From: Microthyrium microscopicum
Taxonomy: Eukaryota
NCBI GenBank assembly: GCA_010405405.1
Contig: MU004231.1
Span: forward strand, 2,185,860 to 2,249,859
Direction: 5' to 3'
Length of the DNA stretch: 64,000 nucleotides
Each line of letters opens with the position of its first letter. The stretch's first letter is position 1. This document shows positions 1,165-10,303 of this stretch, one piece after another. The translations under genes and the position numbers were made by a program. Below the pieces are notes generated by a model. It ran no database searches. It saw only the letters and a program-made list of their open reading frames with translations, and had not been told where the DNA came from.

Positions 1165-3706
1165 CTAGTCCCACTCATCTCCCCATCCCTCGTCCTCCTC
1201 TTCTGCTTTCTTCGGTTCCTCTTTCTTCTTTGCCGGGGCCGCGACTGTTTTCTTTGGCACTGCAGTGCCAGTGGAGTTTGCCTTTGATAGATGTGGTTTT
1301 GCCGTTTTGGTTAAGCCTTTAGGCAGTGGCTTTTTGCTTGGAAGCTTAGATTTGGATTGTGCACTTAGCCAACCCTCGAAATCAGGCTCCCCTTTATCAT
1401 CGTACGATGCAAAAGATGCTGGAGCCTTCTCAGTCGAAGCAGGTGCCCACGGATCCACGTCATTGTCCGCGTCACCACCATCTCCCCATGCGTTTTCAGC
1501 GTCATCCCATCCATTGTCGAGATCATCATCTGGTTCAGATGCCTTCTCAGGAGCTGCACTGATCGCAAAGGGGTTGGGTTTGCTCGATTTCATTACTGCT
1601 GGCCCGGATTGAAGACTCTTGAGCGAGGTCGTTGACGGTGGTGGACGTTGTGCGTTGCTAAGTGGAGGTACAGAACTAGGCCGATCGTCCGTTGCGCCAT
1701 TGGGAGCATCTTGCATTTGCCCGCTGACAGAAGCGATCTTGTTGGTGAATGATGAAATGGCCCATCCAGTCCATCCGGCTCCTTCGGCTTGAGCAGCGCC
1801 CATGCGAGGTTGGTTTGCTTGGGTGTTTGCTGCTGCTCCTGGTGGAGGTGAAATGGTATCGGGTAAAGTTTGAGCATATTTGCGCACTCTATGCATGAAG
1901 ATTTCCATGGTTTTACTGGTTTGATCCCTGATCATCTTTTCTTTATCTATGAGTGATGGACACAAGCCGGGTAATATCTTGGTGGCGCATTCCTCGTCAG
2001 AATAGACATCGGCTGTAGCAGCTAGTGCCATTAGAGCGGCATTTCTGGCATGCACAAATGGGTCTCGTAAGGCTCTTGCAAATGCTGCAGTGAGGACCTT
2101 AGTTCTCGAGCCGGAGCCAAGGTTTCGAGCAATTTTTCCAAGGCAGATGGTGGTGTTCGTTCGGATTCCAGCTTGCTCGTCATTGGCGGTCTTTGCCAGA
2201 TGTCGTAAAAGCTCGCCATTTATGATCCTATCAGTCAGTTTGGGTACAACAACTAGCACGGCTTTGACCGTTTGTTCTCGTACAAGAGGAGCAATATCTG
2301 TGAATCCGGCGACCATCTGAGGCCATATGCTATTGCTGACCAGTTTTTGAGGTAAATGGTCAATCATCTGTGGCAAATTGTCGAGAAGACAAACTCGTAG
2401 GGCTCGATCAGGACTTGCAAATAGCCGGACGATGACTGGATTAAGTCGTTGCTCATATTCTTCTTCTGATAATTTTGAGCTGATCTTCATGATCACGGAG
2501 AAAACCCTTGGGCCGCCACCACCAAATTCAACGGATTTGACCAGCTCCGGTAAAACTTTGACTTTGAAGAAATCTTCAGGGAAATCCTCCGAAACTCCCT
2601 CCAGTTGTTCAAGAAGCTCGTCCCTCTCGGTTTCGTCTTTGACACCCAGATTTTCAATACCATCGGTCAATCGTATAAGAGGCGTCTCGAAGAAGCCTCC
2701 ACTCCTCATGCCTTGGTCCAGGAATGCACCAACTGATAATCGGACCTTTGGGTTCGCACTGATGAGTCGCTTGTAACTCGGCTGCATACTGACAGGTACC
2801 AGTTTCGGTTGAGTGAGTTGATCGGTTCCCATGTAACTGCTATTGAATACCTCATACATCAAAATTCCGAATAGATAAGCGTCAATGGCGTGTACAGGTC
2901 CACTTTTGATTGATCCCCAGCCTGCCTTGCCGATTTCTGGAGGCGAATAGCGCCCCGAGTCAGGAGTAAGGCTGCCATAGTTCTGAACAGAAGTCAGTAA
3001 ATCCCTGGCTGGCTCATGTAAAGCTCTTACATATATTATAGCGTCTTCCTCTTTCATGGAGCTAAGAACCTCGAATCCGCCGAGTTTCCATTCGCCGCTC
3101 TCCGTGGTGAACACCGTGGATGTTCTGATATAGCCATGAACAGAGGTCGCCTCATTGTTGATAAAGCCAACAGTTTTCTAATCCACAATCAGCATAGCCA
3201 ATAGAGCTCTCCTTCGCTAGAGGACTCACTGCAACGCTATGTAATCCCCATTTTATAGTTTCTTGTGACAAGCTCTTTCTCTTTGCATGCCATGAAAGTG
3301 GCGTAACGCGCTCGGTCGCAACGTATATATAAGTTTCCGTCTACCATGAGTTTCAGCAAACAATTCTTCGCCCAGTATTATATATCGTCCGCGCTGACCT
3401 CTACTGTGTCCAGGACTCGTATCACTCCTGGATGTCTTAATGTTCGAAGTTTGCGAACCGCATTGCGCGCCAGGGGTAGTCGGGATTTGTTGGCAGTCAC
3501 GTCGAAGGCGAAGACGCTGCACTTGGAGCCGTCTTCCTGGCATGTTGTTAGTCAACTCTCATTAGCTGTAGGGTGCGACAAACCCTCTTGGTGCTATTAT
3601 GCAGTGTCCAGATTGACGCATCCGTGTCTATCCTATCGTCGAAGGAGTAAGGAAATGCTGGACCTTTGGAAATGGCCGAGGCCACTGCAGACTTCAAAAA
3701 ATCCAT
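1165..3706 (-). CDS. SCY1-like (CEX1/SCYL1-type) pseudokinase with HEAT repeats
   Basis: Spliced gene starting MDFLKSAVASAISKGP at 3706, with several short 5' introns. Pseudokinase motifs LRTLRHPGVIRVLD, HGYIR, GEWKLGGFE; HEAT region (IRTNTTICLGKIA, ALRDPFVHAR); acidic GWGDEWD tail. Confidence 0.9.
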
Positions 3707-4035
3707 GTTCAGCCCACACGCAGCCTGGAACCAGCGAGCGAAATTATAGACAGGAAATTACTTGCGAGAAGTTCTATCATGGTGTCGGTTGGGTTCGCAA
3801 GCCACATATTCTTCATCGGGGTTGTTGATAAGATTAGATCCGTCTGGGTCTCAAATTAGCGCTTCACAAGCGCGTAAGACGCGAGACCTTGACTTGAGTT
3901 CTGAGTTCTCATCTTCATCTCCTGAGGCTTATTATTATTCTGCTCAACCTCTTGGTCTTCACTCATCAAACTTGCCCGGGGCATATATCCTCCAGCTGCC
4001 TTGTATACAAATCAATTTCAAATTGACGACAACAA

Positions 4036-4237
4036 GTAAGTCACTATTCCCCTATTGACAAAATAATGTTGCCGAAGATTAGATATTGGTAAAAGGGCTG
4101 ATGGATCCTCCTGTTATTGCTACTTCAAGCACGAAAGTGGGGACGGAACCAGCTGCTGAATCAACTACTATATGAGGCTATTCAAACCTATTCCAAATTC
4201 AAGCGCCTGTTCTCACTCGGATACTGACTATCCATAG
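4036..4237 (+). ncRNA. Intron of a putative non-coding host transcript containing a box C/D-like guide RNA (about 4060-4180)
   Basis: GTAAGT donor 4036, ACTGAC branch 4223, TAG acceptor 4235-4237, no flanking ORF of note. Two CTGA boxes (4098, 4156), each preceded by a 10-nt antisense element (TGGTAAAAGG; GGAACCAGCT). No consensus box C found. Confidence 0.55.
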
Positions 4238-4694
4238 GACAAGATTCATGGGTCTTTCTGGAACGCGTAGTCAAAGTTTTGAAACTTCTGTATTCTCTTT
4301 TTTCCTAGCCAGTACATACAAATAACCTAGTTCATTGAACTCGGGTAAATTCAGAAATATACACCTTGAAACAATGAAGCAATGTGGCCAAAAATTTAAG
4401 GTGTATTAATACTTGGCGCATAAGCGCGCGCCTATCGCGAACGAACTATGCCCAAGCTCCTTTATGATTTTGGTAACCTCGAACCAAGCTCCTGATATAA
4501 CTCGCACAACTCACTCAGAGAGTCGTCGCCTACCTCACTCTTTTTCGCTCTCACCCCTCAGAAGCTTCTTTGACAACCCGATCCCTTCAAACCTTTGCGC
4601 CAATTTGCGACACTCATTCTTCACATCCCTGTTAACTTCGACGTCGCGTCTCTATCATCAACATCCCTTTTTTCGCGATTCGGACCTCGAAATC

Positions 4695-5689
4695 ATGGCG
4701 GAACCAGACGTGCATAAAGAAGATGAGCAGCTCGACATCGCTGGAGATGACGAAGTTCAAGATGAAGTATGTTGACATGGGCCCTGAAGCTTGCGCTCAA
4801 TCTTCAGCTTTTCAGCCTTGCGACGAGCAAACGCGCTAACACCCCACAGGAAGAGATTCAAGCAATGAAGCAGCGTGTCAAGGAGATGGAAGATGAAGCT
4901 GCCAAACTTCGCGAAATGCAAGCCTCCCTCGATAAGACCGACCAAGAGCTCCGCGAATCGAAAGAAGATATAGATGGCCGCAGCGTATTCGTCGGAAACG
5001 TTGACTACGCTGCTACCCCAGAAGAGATACAGAACCACTTTCGCAGCTGTGGATCGATCAATCGAGTGACCATATTACTCGATAAATACACTGGTCAACC
5101 AAAAGGGTTAGTTTAAAAGCTGGAGATCTCTTGTTGCCAACCCTCATTTTCCGATCCCATGCGACTTGGCGAAGAGCTTTAGCGACGTCAAGTTCGTTCC
5201 GCTAGCAGGCGGTTTCGTCATTTCCACAACTCACTTGAAAGATTAATCGCTACCTGGCAAGAGTGTGACAGAAAGATTGAATATGACGCTAATGAGCGCA
5301 CGCAGGTATGCGTATGTGGAGTTCTCAGAGCCCAGCTTGATTAATAATGCGCTGGTCCTGAATGACAGTGTCTTCCATAGCCGAAACCTCAAGGTAATAC
5401 CCAGCTTTCTGCTCGGACTGGACGGATATTGATCTATTATAGGTTGTTCCAAAACGTACCAATCTTCCCGGTATGGCTCGAGGACGTGGTGGACGAGGTG
5501 GTCCATTCCGTGGTGGTGGGCGTGGAGGAGGATACCGTGGCGGCTTTGGTGGAGGTGGAGGTGCTCCATATCCTCCACGTGGCGGAGGGTAAGTTCAACA
5601 TCAATCGAAGTCAACCGGAAATACGTGTCTAACACTTGAATAGGTACCGTGGTGGCTATCGTGGACGAGGGCGATACGCACCTTATTAG
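4695..5689 (+). CDS. Nuclear poly(A)-binding protein PABPN1/Pab2/Sgn1-like (coiled coil + RRM + RGG tail)
   Basis: Five exons. [24 protein letters not shown] coiled coil, [10 protein letters not shown] (RNP2), KG/YAYVEF (RNP1, split by intron 5107-5305), [12 protein letters not shown]-rich tail ending YAPY*. Confidence 0.92.
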
Positions 5690-6193: not shown

Positions 6194-9100
6194 ACGACAT
6201 GTGCCCAATCCGGCCTCCAAGACCGTTAGGTAGTCTACTCTTGGAACCTATACACGATCCGGCAATGTCGTCTAACTGTCCAATAGCTCACGACCAGTAT
6301 GTCTCTACCATATCGTGAAGTTTTTGCTGAAAAGAAATCATGACAACTCGGACGAAGCCGAGTTCGTGGCTGGCGGCGCAACCACCTCCCCGCGATAATA
6401 TTGAGCACCAGCTACTGGCAAGATCGGGTTATGAGAAAACTGGATTCCTCGATCTAGACCTTTTGTAAAGACATCAGTCAGGCTGAAGTCAGTAGCAGTG
6501 ACTTTCTCTGCCCCATTTCCAGTCGCCTAGCCCCTTACTGCCCGTAGACAGCCCACCACCATTCGATTGCCTGACGACCTCGTATCATTTTTCGTGGCTG
6601 AATAGTCGCTTCGACATTCGATAATCGTCATCTATCTAAGCACGAGTTTAAAAAAAGAAACACCATACTAAACAACATGAGACATAGCACACGACTACTC
6701 CAAATTAAGTCGAGGATTTCTACCACAGCGACGTACCAAAATGGCATCGGTTCCTGTCAGCTCACGCAATCGAGTCACAAAAGCAAGCATACAATGTCTC
6801 TGCTCTAAAGATCCGCCGCACAACCGCAGCTGACTCCATAGGGCTGAAGAAATATTCTCGCAAAATAATCTGCCCACACCACCATGCGCGGAGCAACGAG
6901 GAACCGCGCATAAACATCTGACCAGGACATCTGTTGTACCACCATGTTGTCTCAGCTTGCGCGCCCAGCCATCACGCCCCCAGGTTTTGCGCAGGAACAC
7001 AGCAGGTTGGAAGCATTGTGTATGCAGCATTCTTTTAAAGTGCTTTAAGTCCGCCTTAGAAATGGGTAGGTATAAGCGGTGACTATAAGCGGCGAGAGAC
7101 TTGGGATATTAGGTACCCAGATAGGCAGATATCACGACACCATGCTGGTACCGTGTTGTTTCAGGCACGATTGCGGTGTTGCTGATAGCCGTCATGTACC
7201 TCATGTAAGGAGGTGGCACATAAAAGTGACGTGAGAAAATAATCCAAATCAGGTGGACCGCATCTGATTACTTTCTTCGGCGGCGCCGTGGCATGGTCAA
7301 TGCTGTTGACTGATCTGAGATTGGAAAACGTGGTTGGATCGAAAATCCTGTCCACGTTGTTTCTTTTCCCCATATCGGAGTGGTAATGCCATAAGTTATA
7401 ACCGATATGGCACTTGTAGAATTGCCAGGTTGATCCACTACTGATATCGACAATTCGCTTTTTCTTCTGGCGGCGATGCGCAGGGCACAGGTACGGATAT
7501 TTTGAGCCGCTTTGGACAGTAAATGAAAAAGTGGGTCCACTTGAGATCCATCTCTGCGCAAAGTCGTCTTCCGATCGTGAGCTAATATCAGTCGGAGGAG
7601 TCGGATGAGAGTCGGTTAGCAAGCAAAGAGGCTGCTGAGGCACACCTCTCAGATTGTGCATGAACTGCTATCGGCCAGTTATGTCGTGAGAAACGCTCTA
7701 GAAGGCATTGCTTACACACCATAAGCTTCGTATAATGGATGATAAAGGTATCATCAAGAAAGACGCGAAACCCGGATTTCACCTACAGGGGGGTTGCGTA
7801 CCTGCGCAGCACAATCTTGGAGTGATGCATGCAACCAATGGCGCAACGAACCATGCGACTTGCTCGTATCTTATGCTAGTTGGTGGACCCTTTCATCGTC
7901 TCCAGTTCTCAGCGGATTCCGGAAGGAACTCATGATTATGGACCCATATCTTGGTTGAAAGGGTGGTCGTAGATACGGTACTAGTAAGCTTGGAAGGATC
8001 TAATATCTCGCTTGTTTCGAAACTTGGAGTAGTAGTGCAAGCTCCACATTGATAATGACATCTGGTTGACCAAAGACGGCCCATTGCGTGCCGGGAACTA
8101 GGCAAGCTCCTTGATACCACGACGGTCGTCGGCAGACGGGAATTACCATACGCTTGTCACCATATGCACATGCTCTCCACCAGAGCCGTGGTTATCTTGC
8201 TCAACGTCACTTTGAAAGTTGATAAAAATGTTGCACGTATCTCGCCCTTTTTCGCCACATCGTGAACCAGGCACAGAAAATGAACCCTTTGCCACGCCGT
8301 TGCGTTTGTGCTTTTCTGGTAAGGCAGATTCTGATCCCGCAAAATTGACTGGTAGTAGGCATGATTAGGTGTGGTTAATGTTCAAAGTGTAGAGTTCGAG
8401 CTAGATCCATTGCAGGCTAGACAAAAAATCATCGGGATGCGATAAGTGTAAGAGGGTGTGGAGAAGAAAATCACGATTGGTTAAGAATGTGTTGTCCTGC
8501 CTGTTCCGGGTGGTCTGCGTTTTGGTGCGCAGCTGACAACGCCCCTCCCAATTGGCAAAGTGGTTTGCATGATGCAACTCACGCAGAATTGTTGATTTGC
8601 GGGGTGGGGCTATTCTGACAAGGCATGGATTGTGGAAGGTACGAGAAAAGTTATTCGCTGTTGATTGTAGGAAACAGGACATTTGTTGCGTCGTGATTTG
8701 ATAATTGGAGGTAGAAGGGTTCATGTTGTGCAGAACATGGGGTCTTGTTGGTGAGGATCAAAATGCGGAGGCAGTATGTAGATCACGATCCCTCGTGGAC
8801 CTGGTTTTGGGCCTGTTGCTGTGCGTAATGTGAGACCTTTACGAAGAGGTTGCGAATGATGGGACATGGCACTGGTTTGGCTTGAGTTCATGGGTCAGCT
8901 GGATCAGAACGCCACGATGTGATAGATAGGAATTTGCGGCGTTGATAGTCGCAATACATTGGTGAGATTCAATGAGGGTATTAAATAGTTTTGAAATTGT
9001 ATTTGAGCAGTACTCTCGTGGAAGACCGCAAATAATAAAATGAGTAATATGCTTATTACAAAGTAGAGTACTGTATTAGCTTGTGGTTGAGTTGCGCCCT

Positions 9101-9754: not shown

Positions 9755-10303
9755 TCAGCCTAGAGTGGTTCGTCTCTTCCAGTCTCGCGAATGGTCGAAC
9801 GAGTTCGAATAGTTCTGTAGTTGCGAGAGAGCATGATCTGATAGACCACCAGACGTGCTGGAGCTAGAGATGGAAGAGAGAGATGATCGTGACGTCGAAG
9901 GGTTCAGGCTTCGTCGCTGAGAGTAGTCGGTGGTTGCTCGATATAAAGGAGCAGGGCGATGCGAGGAATTGTGTTGTGTAGCAGAATGGCTGTGGTGGTG
10001 TAGCGTTGCACCAGCTCGAGGGCTTAATGGCGGGGATTCTATCCTGGATGACGAGCCATGTCGGTACGCGGCAAAGTTGAATGCCGGCGGAAGGTGAAAT
10101 TGCTTGCTGCTCTTTGATACTGAAAAGGATAATGTTGACGAGTTTGATGATGCCGAGTATCCATAGCCTGGTGATACTGGAGCTGAGAATGCCGACTTTT
10201 CCAGATCTGCTAACCGGCAAGCTTGGGAGCAGTAGTGTGGTTCGGGAGTTTGTTTGTCACAGTTGAGACAATAGTTTGGAGACCATTCCATTTCGGTAGA
10301 CAT
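9755..10303 (-). CDS. Ecl1-family (extender of chronological lifespan) zinc-binding protein
   Basis: N-terminal YCLNCDKQ....YCSQACRLADLE four-Cys motif followed by a Ser-rich region; TATA-like box about 80 nt upstream. Confidence 0.88.
   Translation of the reverse strand: MSTEMEWSPNYCLNCDKQTPEPHYCSQACRLADLEKSAFSAPVSPGYGYSASSNSSTLSFSVSKSSKQFHLPPAFNFAAYRHGSSSRIESPPLSPRAGATLHHHSHSATQHNSSHRPAPLYRATTDYSQRRSLNPSTSRSSLSSISSSSTSGGLSDHALSQLQNYSNSFDHSRDWKRRTTLG

Follow-up and report, generated by a model that had tools for sequence, protein, structure and literature searches.

A SCY1-linked family of fungal box C/D RNAs with a predicted guide for U5 snRNA loop I, and its copy with a degenerate box C in Microthyrium microscopicum

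I found that a conserved family of box C/D RNAs, located upstream of SCY1-like genes in fungi and predicted to guide the modification of U5 snRNA loop I, very probably has an orthologue in Microthyrium microscopicum. The element lies at positions 4075-4159 of the plus strand in a 64,000-nucleotide stretch of contig MU004231.1, which is called the window in this study. Since its guide 10-mer, the register of the guide to the boxes and the linkage to SCY1 recur in relatives, the element can be read as the local copy of an intron-encoded box C/D RNA. Because the sequence AAGATTA replaces the relatives' box C, the activity of this copy is uncertain; judging from the sequence features described below, the chance that it still works as a U5 guide may be close to even, if anything slightly less.

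Results

An intron-like frame with box C/D motifs beside a SCY1-like gene

An intron frame of 202 nt is present at 4036-4237 (+), with GTAAGT at 4036-4041, ACTGAC at 4224-4229 and TAG at 4235-4237, exactly where a preliminary description of this DNA had placed it. The frame is predicted to be spliced as the intron of a non-coding host gene. No ATG-started ORF of at least 60 amino acids runs across the flanks of the frame, which agrees with the earlier proposal of an intron without coding exons. The two neighbours were also named correctly as a SCY1-like gene and a poly(A)-binding protein gene. The 5′ neighbour is a HEAT-repeat gene on the minus strand whose first exons read like a SCY1-type protein, and its start codon (ATG; 3704-3706, minus strand) is 369 nt from the box C position of the RNA. 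The 3′ neighbour is a Pab2-like RRM gene on the plus strand, starting at 4696.

The RNA body (4075-4159, +), as delimited by alignment with the relatives, begins at the box C position, ends with box D and measures 85 nt. All of its motifs are on the plus strand. The box C position is occupied by the degenerate AAGATTA (4075-4081), which aligns under ATGATGA or GTGATGA of the four relatives. The D′ guide TGGTAAAAGG (4087-4096), which is antisense to U5 loop I and does not vary between the window and the four relatives, is separated by one base (G 4097) from the box D′ CTGA (4098-4101), and this register is conserved. A second 10-mer, GGAACCAGCT (4145-4154), antisense to AGCTGGTTCC of the LSU rRNA, adjoins the box D CTGA (4156-4159), which is preceded by a G and aligns with the CTGA of two relatives (L057 and L079); the D+5 position is A4151. 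The two guide-G-CTGA elements at 4087-4101 and 4145-4159, reported earlier, were confirmed by direct reading, and each 15-mer is unique in the 64-kb window even when up to two mismatches are allowed. The hairpin CAC-GAAA-GTG proposed to lie between them is present at 4130-4139. It includes a C′-like CGAAAG (4132-4137), a weak assignment made by eye. Folding of the intron against controls was uninformative (z = -0.17).

Two side observations concern the region between the frame and the Pab2 gene. Contigs of two sequencing runs from different studies (X5, guessed to be RNA, and X6, guessed to be DNA) begin at 4501 and 4514, have no loose ends there and extend into the Pab2 gene; the DNA run continues past their starts. 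Pab2 transcripts may start near 4500, in which case the intron frame would lie outside the Pab2 leader, but the hint is weak. Both runs leave 3700-4500 uncovered, and the runs that contain the whole stretch are DNA runs of this organism, none being recorded as RNA; this coverage has no bearing on expression. Between the frame and the Pab2 leader, the minus strand has an inverted repeat (4355-4410) whose arms (ATACACCTT...AAGGTGTAT) can pair over about 13 bp; its Rfam match, to mir-1991, is weak (23.7 bits, E 0.048, gathering threshold 66).

Conserved counterparts upstream of SCY1-like genes

The comparison set consisted of 80 fungal metagenome loci anchored on Pab2 exon 2 (76-82% identity), the best 80 of 293 confirmed loci. 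The D′ guide TGGTAAAAGG is found in four of these best 80 loci, 0.98 being expected, while the bare 10-mer GGAACCAGCT is found in none of them. A canonical box C stands beside TGGTAAAAGG in all four loci, and box C itself was not a search criterion. The box C is ATGATGA in L035, L057 and L079 and GTGATGA in L047. It is followed by a short spacer (atcaa in L035, atct in L047, ttttaat in L057 and tttttatt in L079), the guide TGGTAAAAGG, a single t, and a D′ box reading CAGA in L035, CATA in L047 and CCGA in both L057 and L079. The spacer is 4-8 nt long in the four relatives and 5 nt in the window. Measured from box C through box D, the RNA is 85 nt long both in the window and in L035, 109 nt in L057, 111 nt in L079 and 134 nt in L047; in L057 and L079, the box D at 109-111 nt from the start of box C reads TCTGA.

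An intron frame like that of the window surrounds the RNA in three of the four relatives. In L057 and L079, GTAAGT lies 54 and 53 nt 5′ of box C, and CTGAC or CTGAT followed by YAG lies on the 3′ side; in L047, GTAAAG lies 42 nt 5′ of box C, and CTGAC with TAG is on the 3′ side. No intron frame was seen around the RNA in L035, where box D would be CAGA. The earlier idea of an intron-encoded C/D-type U5 guide in a non-coding host is thus borne out by a canonical box C in 4/4 loci and by an intron frame in 3/4.

Among the best 80 of 293 loci, a SCY1-like large exon is present in four, and the first two exons of the SCY1-like gene are present in five (L035, L047, L056, L057 and L079). L056 was left out of the synteny count, as this locus begins within the SCY1-like gene and has no upstream DNA. 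In this set of the best 80 loci, the RNA lies upstream of the SCY1 start codon and on the opposite strand in all four testable loci, and it was found in none of the 75 loci without a SCY1 start. The distance from the RNA to the SCY1 start is 649 nt in L035, 477 nt in L047, 801 nt in L057 and 814 nt in L079, compared with 369 nt in the window. The linkage is to SCY1 and not to Pab2; in L057 and L079, Pab2 sits beyond SCY1. The unit can be summarised as box C, 4-8 nt, TGGTAAAAGG, N and CNNA, divergent from SCY1 at 0.4-0.8 kb; the window has all of these features but box C. The sequence of the guide, its register, its conservation and its synteny are direct observations. The preliminary description had made the element depend on conservation in related genomes, and for the U5 element such conservation was found in 4/4 testable SCY1-linked loci.

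A blastn search with window positions 3708-4695 gave no meaningful similarity to the best 80 of 293 loci. A regular expression for either guide followed by CTGA had no match among the same best 80 loci, and a strict pattern that required the two guides together with their CTGA boxes had no match in the metagenome contigs. The absence of strict two-guide matches follows from the relatives having other D′ boxes and other D-adjacent sequences.

Some further features of these loci may be recorded. In L047, CCCGTGAT (874-881, +), which includes half of box C, is fully complementary to ATCACGGG about 45 nt downstream (approximately 925-932); this pairing would sequester box C. On the minus strand of L057 and L079, GUCCG around D′ is complementary to CGGAC near box D over 5 bp (967-973 with 901-905 in L057), and in the window, GGCUG (4096-4100) is complementary to CAGCU (4150-4154), as noted by eye. 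These complementary blocks lie at differing distances from box D, and nothing similar was seen in L035 or L047. Another sequence, CCCGGTAAAAGGAAGCCGGGCGC, is common to six loci at the same place relative to Pab2 (L055, L058, L059, L063 and L073 at 4427 on the minus strand, and L067 at 467 on the minus strand); this stretch is conserved, has no box C and is probably coding.

A model of the relatives finds the window element

A sequence-only model, R1, was trained on alignment A3, which comprises the 5′ domains of the relatives' four RNAs and excludes the window. On both strands of the 64-kb window, R1 gave a single match at 4077-4102 (+), with 12.2 bits and an E-value of 0.012 under a rough calibration; the training sequences score 32-38 bits. 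Against the best 80 of 293 loci, R1 returned the four training sequences and one 12.2-bit match in L080. The L080 match lies inside an acidic coding stretch and was rejected as a family member, being due to chance.

Both the R1 alignment and a five-way alignment of the window with the four relatives (A5) place AAGATTA under box C, G-CTGA under T-C[ACT][GT]A and the spacer under the spacers. In all five sequences of A5, the whole 10-mer is identical, box C retains GAT and its final A, and D′ retains its C and its final A. The sequence CTGATGG occurs in the window only; in the relatives, the bases after C[ACT][GT]A are CT, CC or TT. At the putative C′ position, only a CGA core is common by eye (CGAAAG in the window, CGATCA in L035, and CGAGAA and CGAGAC in L057 and L079).

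Could the motifs of the window have come together by chance in a bidirectional promoter region and have nothing to do with the relatives' RNAs? Taken alone, they are not beyond chance. The window has 515 CTGA sites, an intron-like frame of the same geometry surrounds 0.1-0.3% of its positions, the LSU matches described below occur as often as expected, and the strict two-guide pattern is absent from the metagenome collection. However, the 10-mer, the register, the orientation and the distance from SCY1 recur in 4/4 testable loci, R1 has a single match in the window, and the box C position can still be aligned, its GA core being preserved. The U5 element is above chance because it is conserved in the relatives. 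The chance-cluster reading was dropped once the count of the 10-mer in the loci had exposed SCY1-linked orthologues, and I consider it very improbable.

The predicted target in U5 loop I

The guide TGGTAAAAGG is antisense to CCUUUUACCA, of which 8 of the 10 bases are the invariant U5 loop I GCCUUUUAC, as taken from the published and not the native U5 sequence; the window itself contains no U5 gene. It is complementary to CCUUUUAC of the loop and would also pair with two bases outside the invariant loop. The D′+5 position, A4093, lies opposite the second U in the loop's UUUU run. The preliminary description had held that the U41 equivalent is selected, and the D′+5 rule does pick this uridine in the published loop GCCUUUUAC. 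On the sense strand of 48 rDNA-like loci, which are mostly partial LSU, the guide has no match (CCTTTTAC does not occur there).

The loop sequence GCCUUUUAC is given as invariant in passages of PMC4824092 and PMC7960923. According to the latter, the human loop reads Gm37 C C U Um41, scaRNA5/6 are assigned to U5 Um41, and the U5 of S. cerevisiae is described as having no 2′-O-methyl group. In Arabidopsis, U5 G40, U44 and C48 are ribose-methylated and correspond to human Gm37, Um41 and Cm45 (PMC8053127, table 3). Since the same three loop positions are methylated in Arabidopsis, the Um41-type modification reaches beyond animals. From its register, the D′ guide should direct ribose methylation of the U41 equivalent in the U5 loop.

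A second guide for LSU rRNA is found in the window only

The D-adjacent 10-mer GGAACCAGCT pairs perfectly with AGCUGGUUCC of the LSU rRNA, with an additional G-U pair adjoining box D. The D+5 position (A4151) picks the U of AGC-U-GG, approximately U919 in the numbering of N. crassa. I know of no methylation at this uridine in yeast or human. Its number was counted from Gm888 and Am897 (PMC2780460, additional file 4) along a fungal-type rDNA sequence, and the list of 71 predicted N. crassa sites lacks it (PMC2780460). The LSU motif had no match in the main text and searched supplements of a paper on rRNA modification in S. pombe (PMC4605285).

The motif itself is real, because AGCTGGTTCC is present just upstream of the LR5 primer site in 41 of the 53 loci (L081-L133) that were fetched around this site; the conserved LSU motif of the preliminary description is therefore not in doubt. 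Many of these loci are short contigs with eukaryote-type LSU rDNA in bacterial or archaeal assemblies, CTAGTAGCTGGTTCC-type sequence being found in 41/53, and such contigs look like contamination.

As a chance control, I counted 10-mers antisense to one fungal-type LSU fragment of 2.4 kb (L086) and followed by N and CTGA. There are two in the window against about 1.1-1.2 expected (shuffles average 1.08), and eight in the other fungal loci, which total 512,259 bases and where 9.5 would be expected. Since both counts match the expectation, a single LSU match occurs at the chance rate. The second match in the window, AGGCTTCGTC-G-CTGA at 9906-9920 (+), has no box C-like motif upstream and was taken as a control for chance. 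In the four relatives, GGAACCAGCT is absent, and unrelated sequence adjoins their box D. L057 and L079 have CTGCGGACAACC in common near box D, with a register to box D that differs by one base; the D-adjacent sequences of the relatives had no consistent target match in the 53 LR5-site loci.

Thus, the earlier proposal of a dual snRNA/rRNA guide was upheld in its U5 half, which is conserved; the LSU half was not, as it is missing from the relatives and such matches occur at the chance rate. The dual-guide reading is therefore unsupported. On the other hand, a perfect LSU match at a given box D of a genuine snoRNA is estimated to be an event of about 0.6%, so that the LSU guide stays live if an RNP assembles. 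I regard it as doubtful that the LSU guide next to box D is a recent second function, at roughly one chance in a few.

Is the copy in the window active?

The preliminary description had found no consensus box C, and indeed no 7-mer within one mismatch of RTGATGA occurs at 3990-4160 of the plus strand. The closest box C-like 7-mers there are CTGATGG (4098-4104) and AAGATTA (4075-4081). AAGATTA has two mismatches to RTGATGA (U2 to A and G6 to U) and keeps the GA core. The box pattern is the reverse of that in the relatives, which have a canonical box C and a degenerate D′, whereas the window has a degenerate box C and a perfect CTGA as D′. In N. crassa (PMC2780460, counted by eye), 48 of the 55 C boxes contain UGAUGA and the first U is kept in 54/55; CD50 lacks the first U and CD55 has UGAUUA, and no C box combines both changes. 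The base before the D box is U in 42, A in 8, C in 4 and G in none of 54 N. crassa RNAs (PMC2780460, counted by eye). G precedes both CTGA boxes of the window element, and also 148 of the 515 CTGA sites in the window.

As for terminal stems, the best flank duplex with the CTGATGG box has -3.4 kcal/mol, and 81% of random window controls are equal or better; the relatives likewise show no clear terminal stem by eye. In Rfam searches, nothing reached the gathering threshold in the 64-kb window, nothing was found at E<=10 on the plus strand of 3850-4450 (601 nt) or 4060-4180 (121 nt), and nothing was found in 14 Pab2 loci. The Rfam search that the preliminary description had suggested as a check hence gave the window element no family match even at E<=10. 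L057 has weak Rfam matches to the C/D families SNORD61 and SNORD18, while the window has none. Apart from the RNA, L079 has a weak match to snoZ247 on its minus strand (6845-6898; 22.6 bits, E 2.9, gathering threshold 38) over a TGATGATGATGATCTGA run, probably a repeat artefact.

These features allow the copy to be read as an inactive relic, which descended from a U5-guide snoRNA, whose box C changes block the binding of Snu13 and the formation of the snoRNP, which would yield no stable RNA, and whose LSU match is a coincidence. Such a relic would account for AAGATTA where the relatives have ATGATGA or GTGATGA, for the missing C/D family match at E<=10, for the weak flanking stem and the G before box D, and for LSU-type 10-mers matching at the chance rate; box mutations and weak terminal stems mark unexpressed snoRNA copies, according to passages of PMC12309372. 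However, in an intron that otherwise has no similarity to the relatives, the guide (10/10), both D-type boxes, their spacing and the whole frame are preserved, so any decay must be recent. If two random hits fell on about 24 constrained positions, the chance that both would be in box C is estimated at about 0.09, and one would also have to accept, as the rare event estimated above, that a perfect LSU match of 10 nt sits exactly next to box D. On balance, I hold the relic to be unlikely, though a serious contender.

The CTGATGG at 4098-4104 (+), detected by the motif scan, has a UGAUG core and overlaps D′. It may have become a new box C (CUGAUGG) that absorbed D′ and pairs with box D, while the old box C decayed. 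The product of such a remodelled snoRNA would be about 69 nt long and carry the LSU guide only, with the U5 guide left outside the RNP. This reading would explain together why the old box C decayed, why UG follows CTGA and why the LSU match exists. The UGAUG core is kept in CUGAUGG, and both C-UGAUGA and UGAUG with a following non-A base occur in cloned N. crassa snoRNAs (PMC2780460, by eye). The 5′ splice site would be 57 nt away from the 5′ end of this RNA (about 4093), a distance that falls in the N. crassa range of 41-60 nt (PMC2780460). Against it, no precedent is known to me, no stem adjoins the pair of CUGAUGG and box D, a G precedes box D, the LSU site is outside the 71 predicted N. 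crassa sites, and the U5 10-mer is still perfect though it would be unconstrained. I therefore find it improbable that an ancestral snRNA guide was re-cut in this way into an rRNA guide that would methylate the universally conserved LSU uridine at about U919.

Discussion

The preferred reading is that the window carries a copy of an intron-encoded U5 guide RNA, and its proposed mode of action is as follows. The host would be a non-coding gene whose upstream region is common with that of the SCY1-like gene, which is transcribed in the opposite direction. The host transcript would be spliced and the intron trimmed back to a snoRNP, so that the RNA accumulates. The D′ guide UGGUAAAAGG, 10 nt in length, would then pair with loop I of the native U5 snRNA, and fibrillarin (Nop1) would methylate the ribose of the loop U opposite the fifth guide base upstream of D′. 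This target U is predicted to correspond to Um41 in human and Um44 in Arabidopsis. That the host is spliced, that the RNA accumulates, that it pairs with the native U5 and that methylation follows are all deduced from sequence.

No fungal guide for U5 loop I was found in a full-text search of the literature. None is contained in table 1 or additional files 1 and 4 of the N. crassa study (PMC2780460) or in the list of 27 C/D RNAs of A. fumigatus, and the term "U5 snRNA" has no occurrence in the main text, apart from its supplementary target tables, of a paper on fungal snoRNAomes. The U5 loop is the part that holds the exons during splicing, and it is methylated in human and Arabidopsis and not in baker's yeast. 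For filamentous fungi, the N. crassa and A. fumigatus catalogues have neither the U5 loop modification nor its guide. A conserved C/D RNA with a guide of the U87/U88 type beside a fixed neighbour leads to the prediction that many fungi methylate the U41 equivalent. Since the gene for a fungal U5 guide could be deleted, the role of U41 methylation may be testable in a tractable organism. The copy in the window may offer a chance to observe, in nature, a guide RNA on its way either to loss or to a new target. If the takeover of the box were true, it would imply a new methylation of the LSU at about U919, a site absent from the N. crassa list (PMC2780460).

How does the fungal family compare with known guide RNAs? 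N. crassa has intronic C/D RNAs aimed at snRNAs (CD24 for U5-Am62, CD29 for U2-Am31 and CD11 for U6-Am47; PMC2780460), with guides of 11-16 nt. The N. crassa C/D RNAs are likewise intron-encoded and 75-101 nt in length, some with non-coding hosts (PMC2780460), and D′ variants such as CAGA, CCGA and CAUA occur among them (PMC2780460, additional file 4), as in the relatives described here. In contrast, a guide for U5 loop I is found in 0/55 of the N. crassa RNAs, and CD24 hits another position of U5 (PMC2780460). In Arabidopsis, G40 is assigned to SnoR102 and C48 to SnoR130, while U44 is listed without an assigned guide (PMC8053127, table 3). As regards the host, the RNA in the window lies in an intron, as in genes of the UHG/gas5 type and of the N. 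crassa clusters I-V (PMC2780460), and the exons have no convincing ORF. The host in the window differs from these genes in that one intron is seen and the host is predicted from sequence.

The closest likeness is to the vertebrate SCARNA5 and SCARNA6 RNAs (U87 and U88). Like the fungal RNA, they have a box C, a few bases, GUAAAAGG, one base and a D′ box. They are intronic. The 5′ consensus of Rfam RF00478 (SCARNA6) reads box C, aUa, GUAAAAGG, U, CUGA and cUcCc, and it aligns with L035. The match of L035 to this family is weak and below the threshold (15.1 bits, E 2.2, gathering threshold 68), and the window has no match to RF00478 at E<=10. RF00478 has 265 positions, about 227 of which separate the 5′ C/D part from the 3′ end, whereas the fungal RNAs are 85-134 nt long. 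These internal positions presumably hold an H/ACA domain. With 85-134 nt from box C to box D, the fungal RNAs are too short to hold a long internal domain, and the family does not pass as a member of RF00478. For SCARNA6, as represented by the RF00478 consensus, and for the fungal guide, the D′+5 rule selects the same U of the U5 loop. By analogy, the fungal family may thus work, in function, like the C/D part of vertebrate U87/U88.
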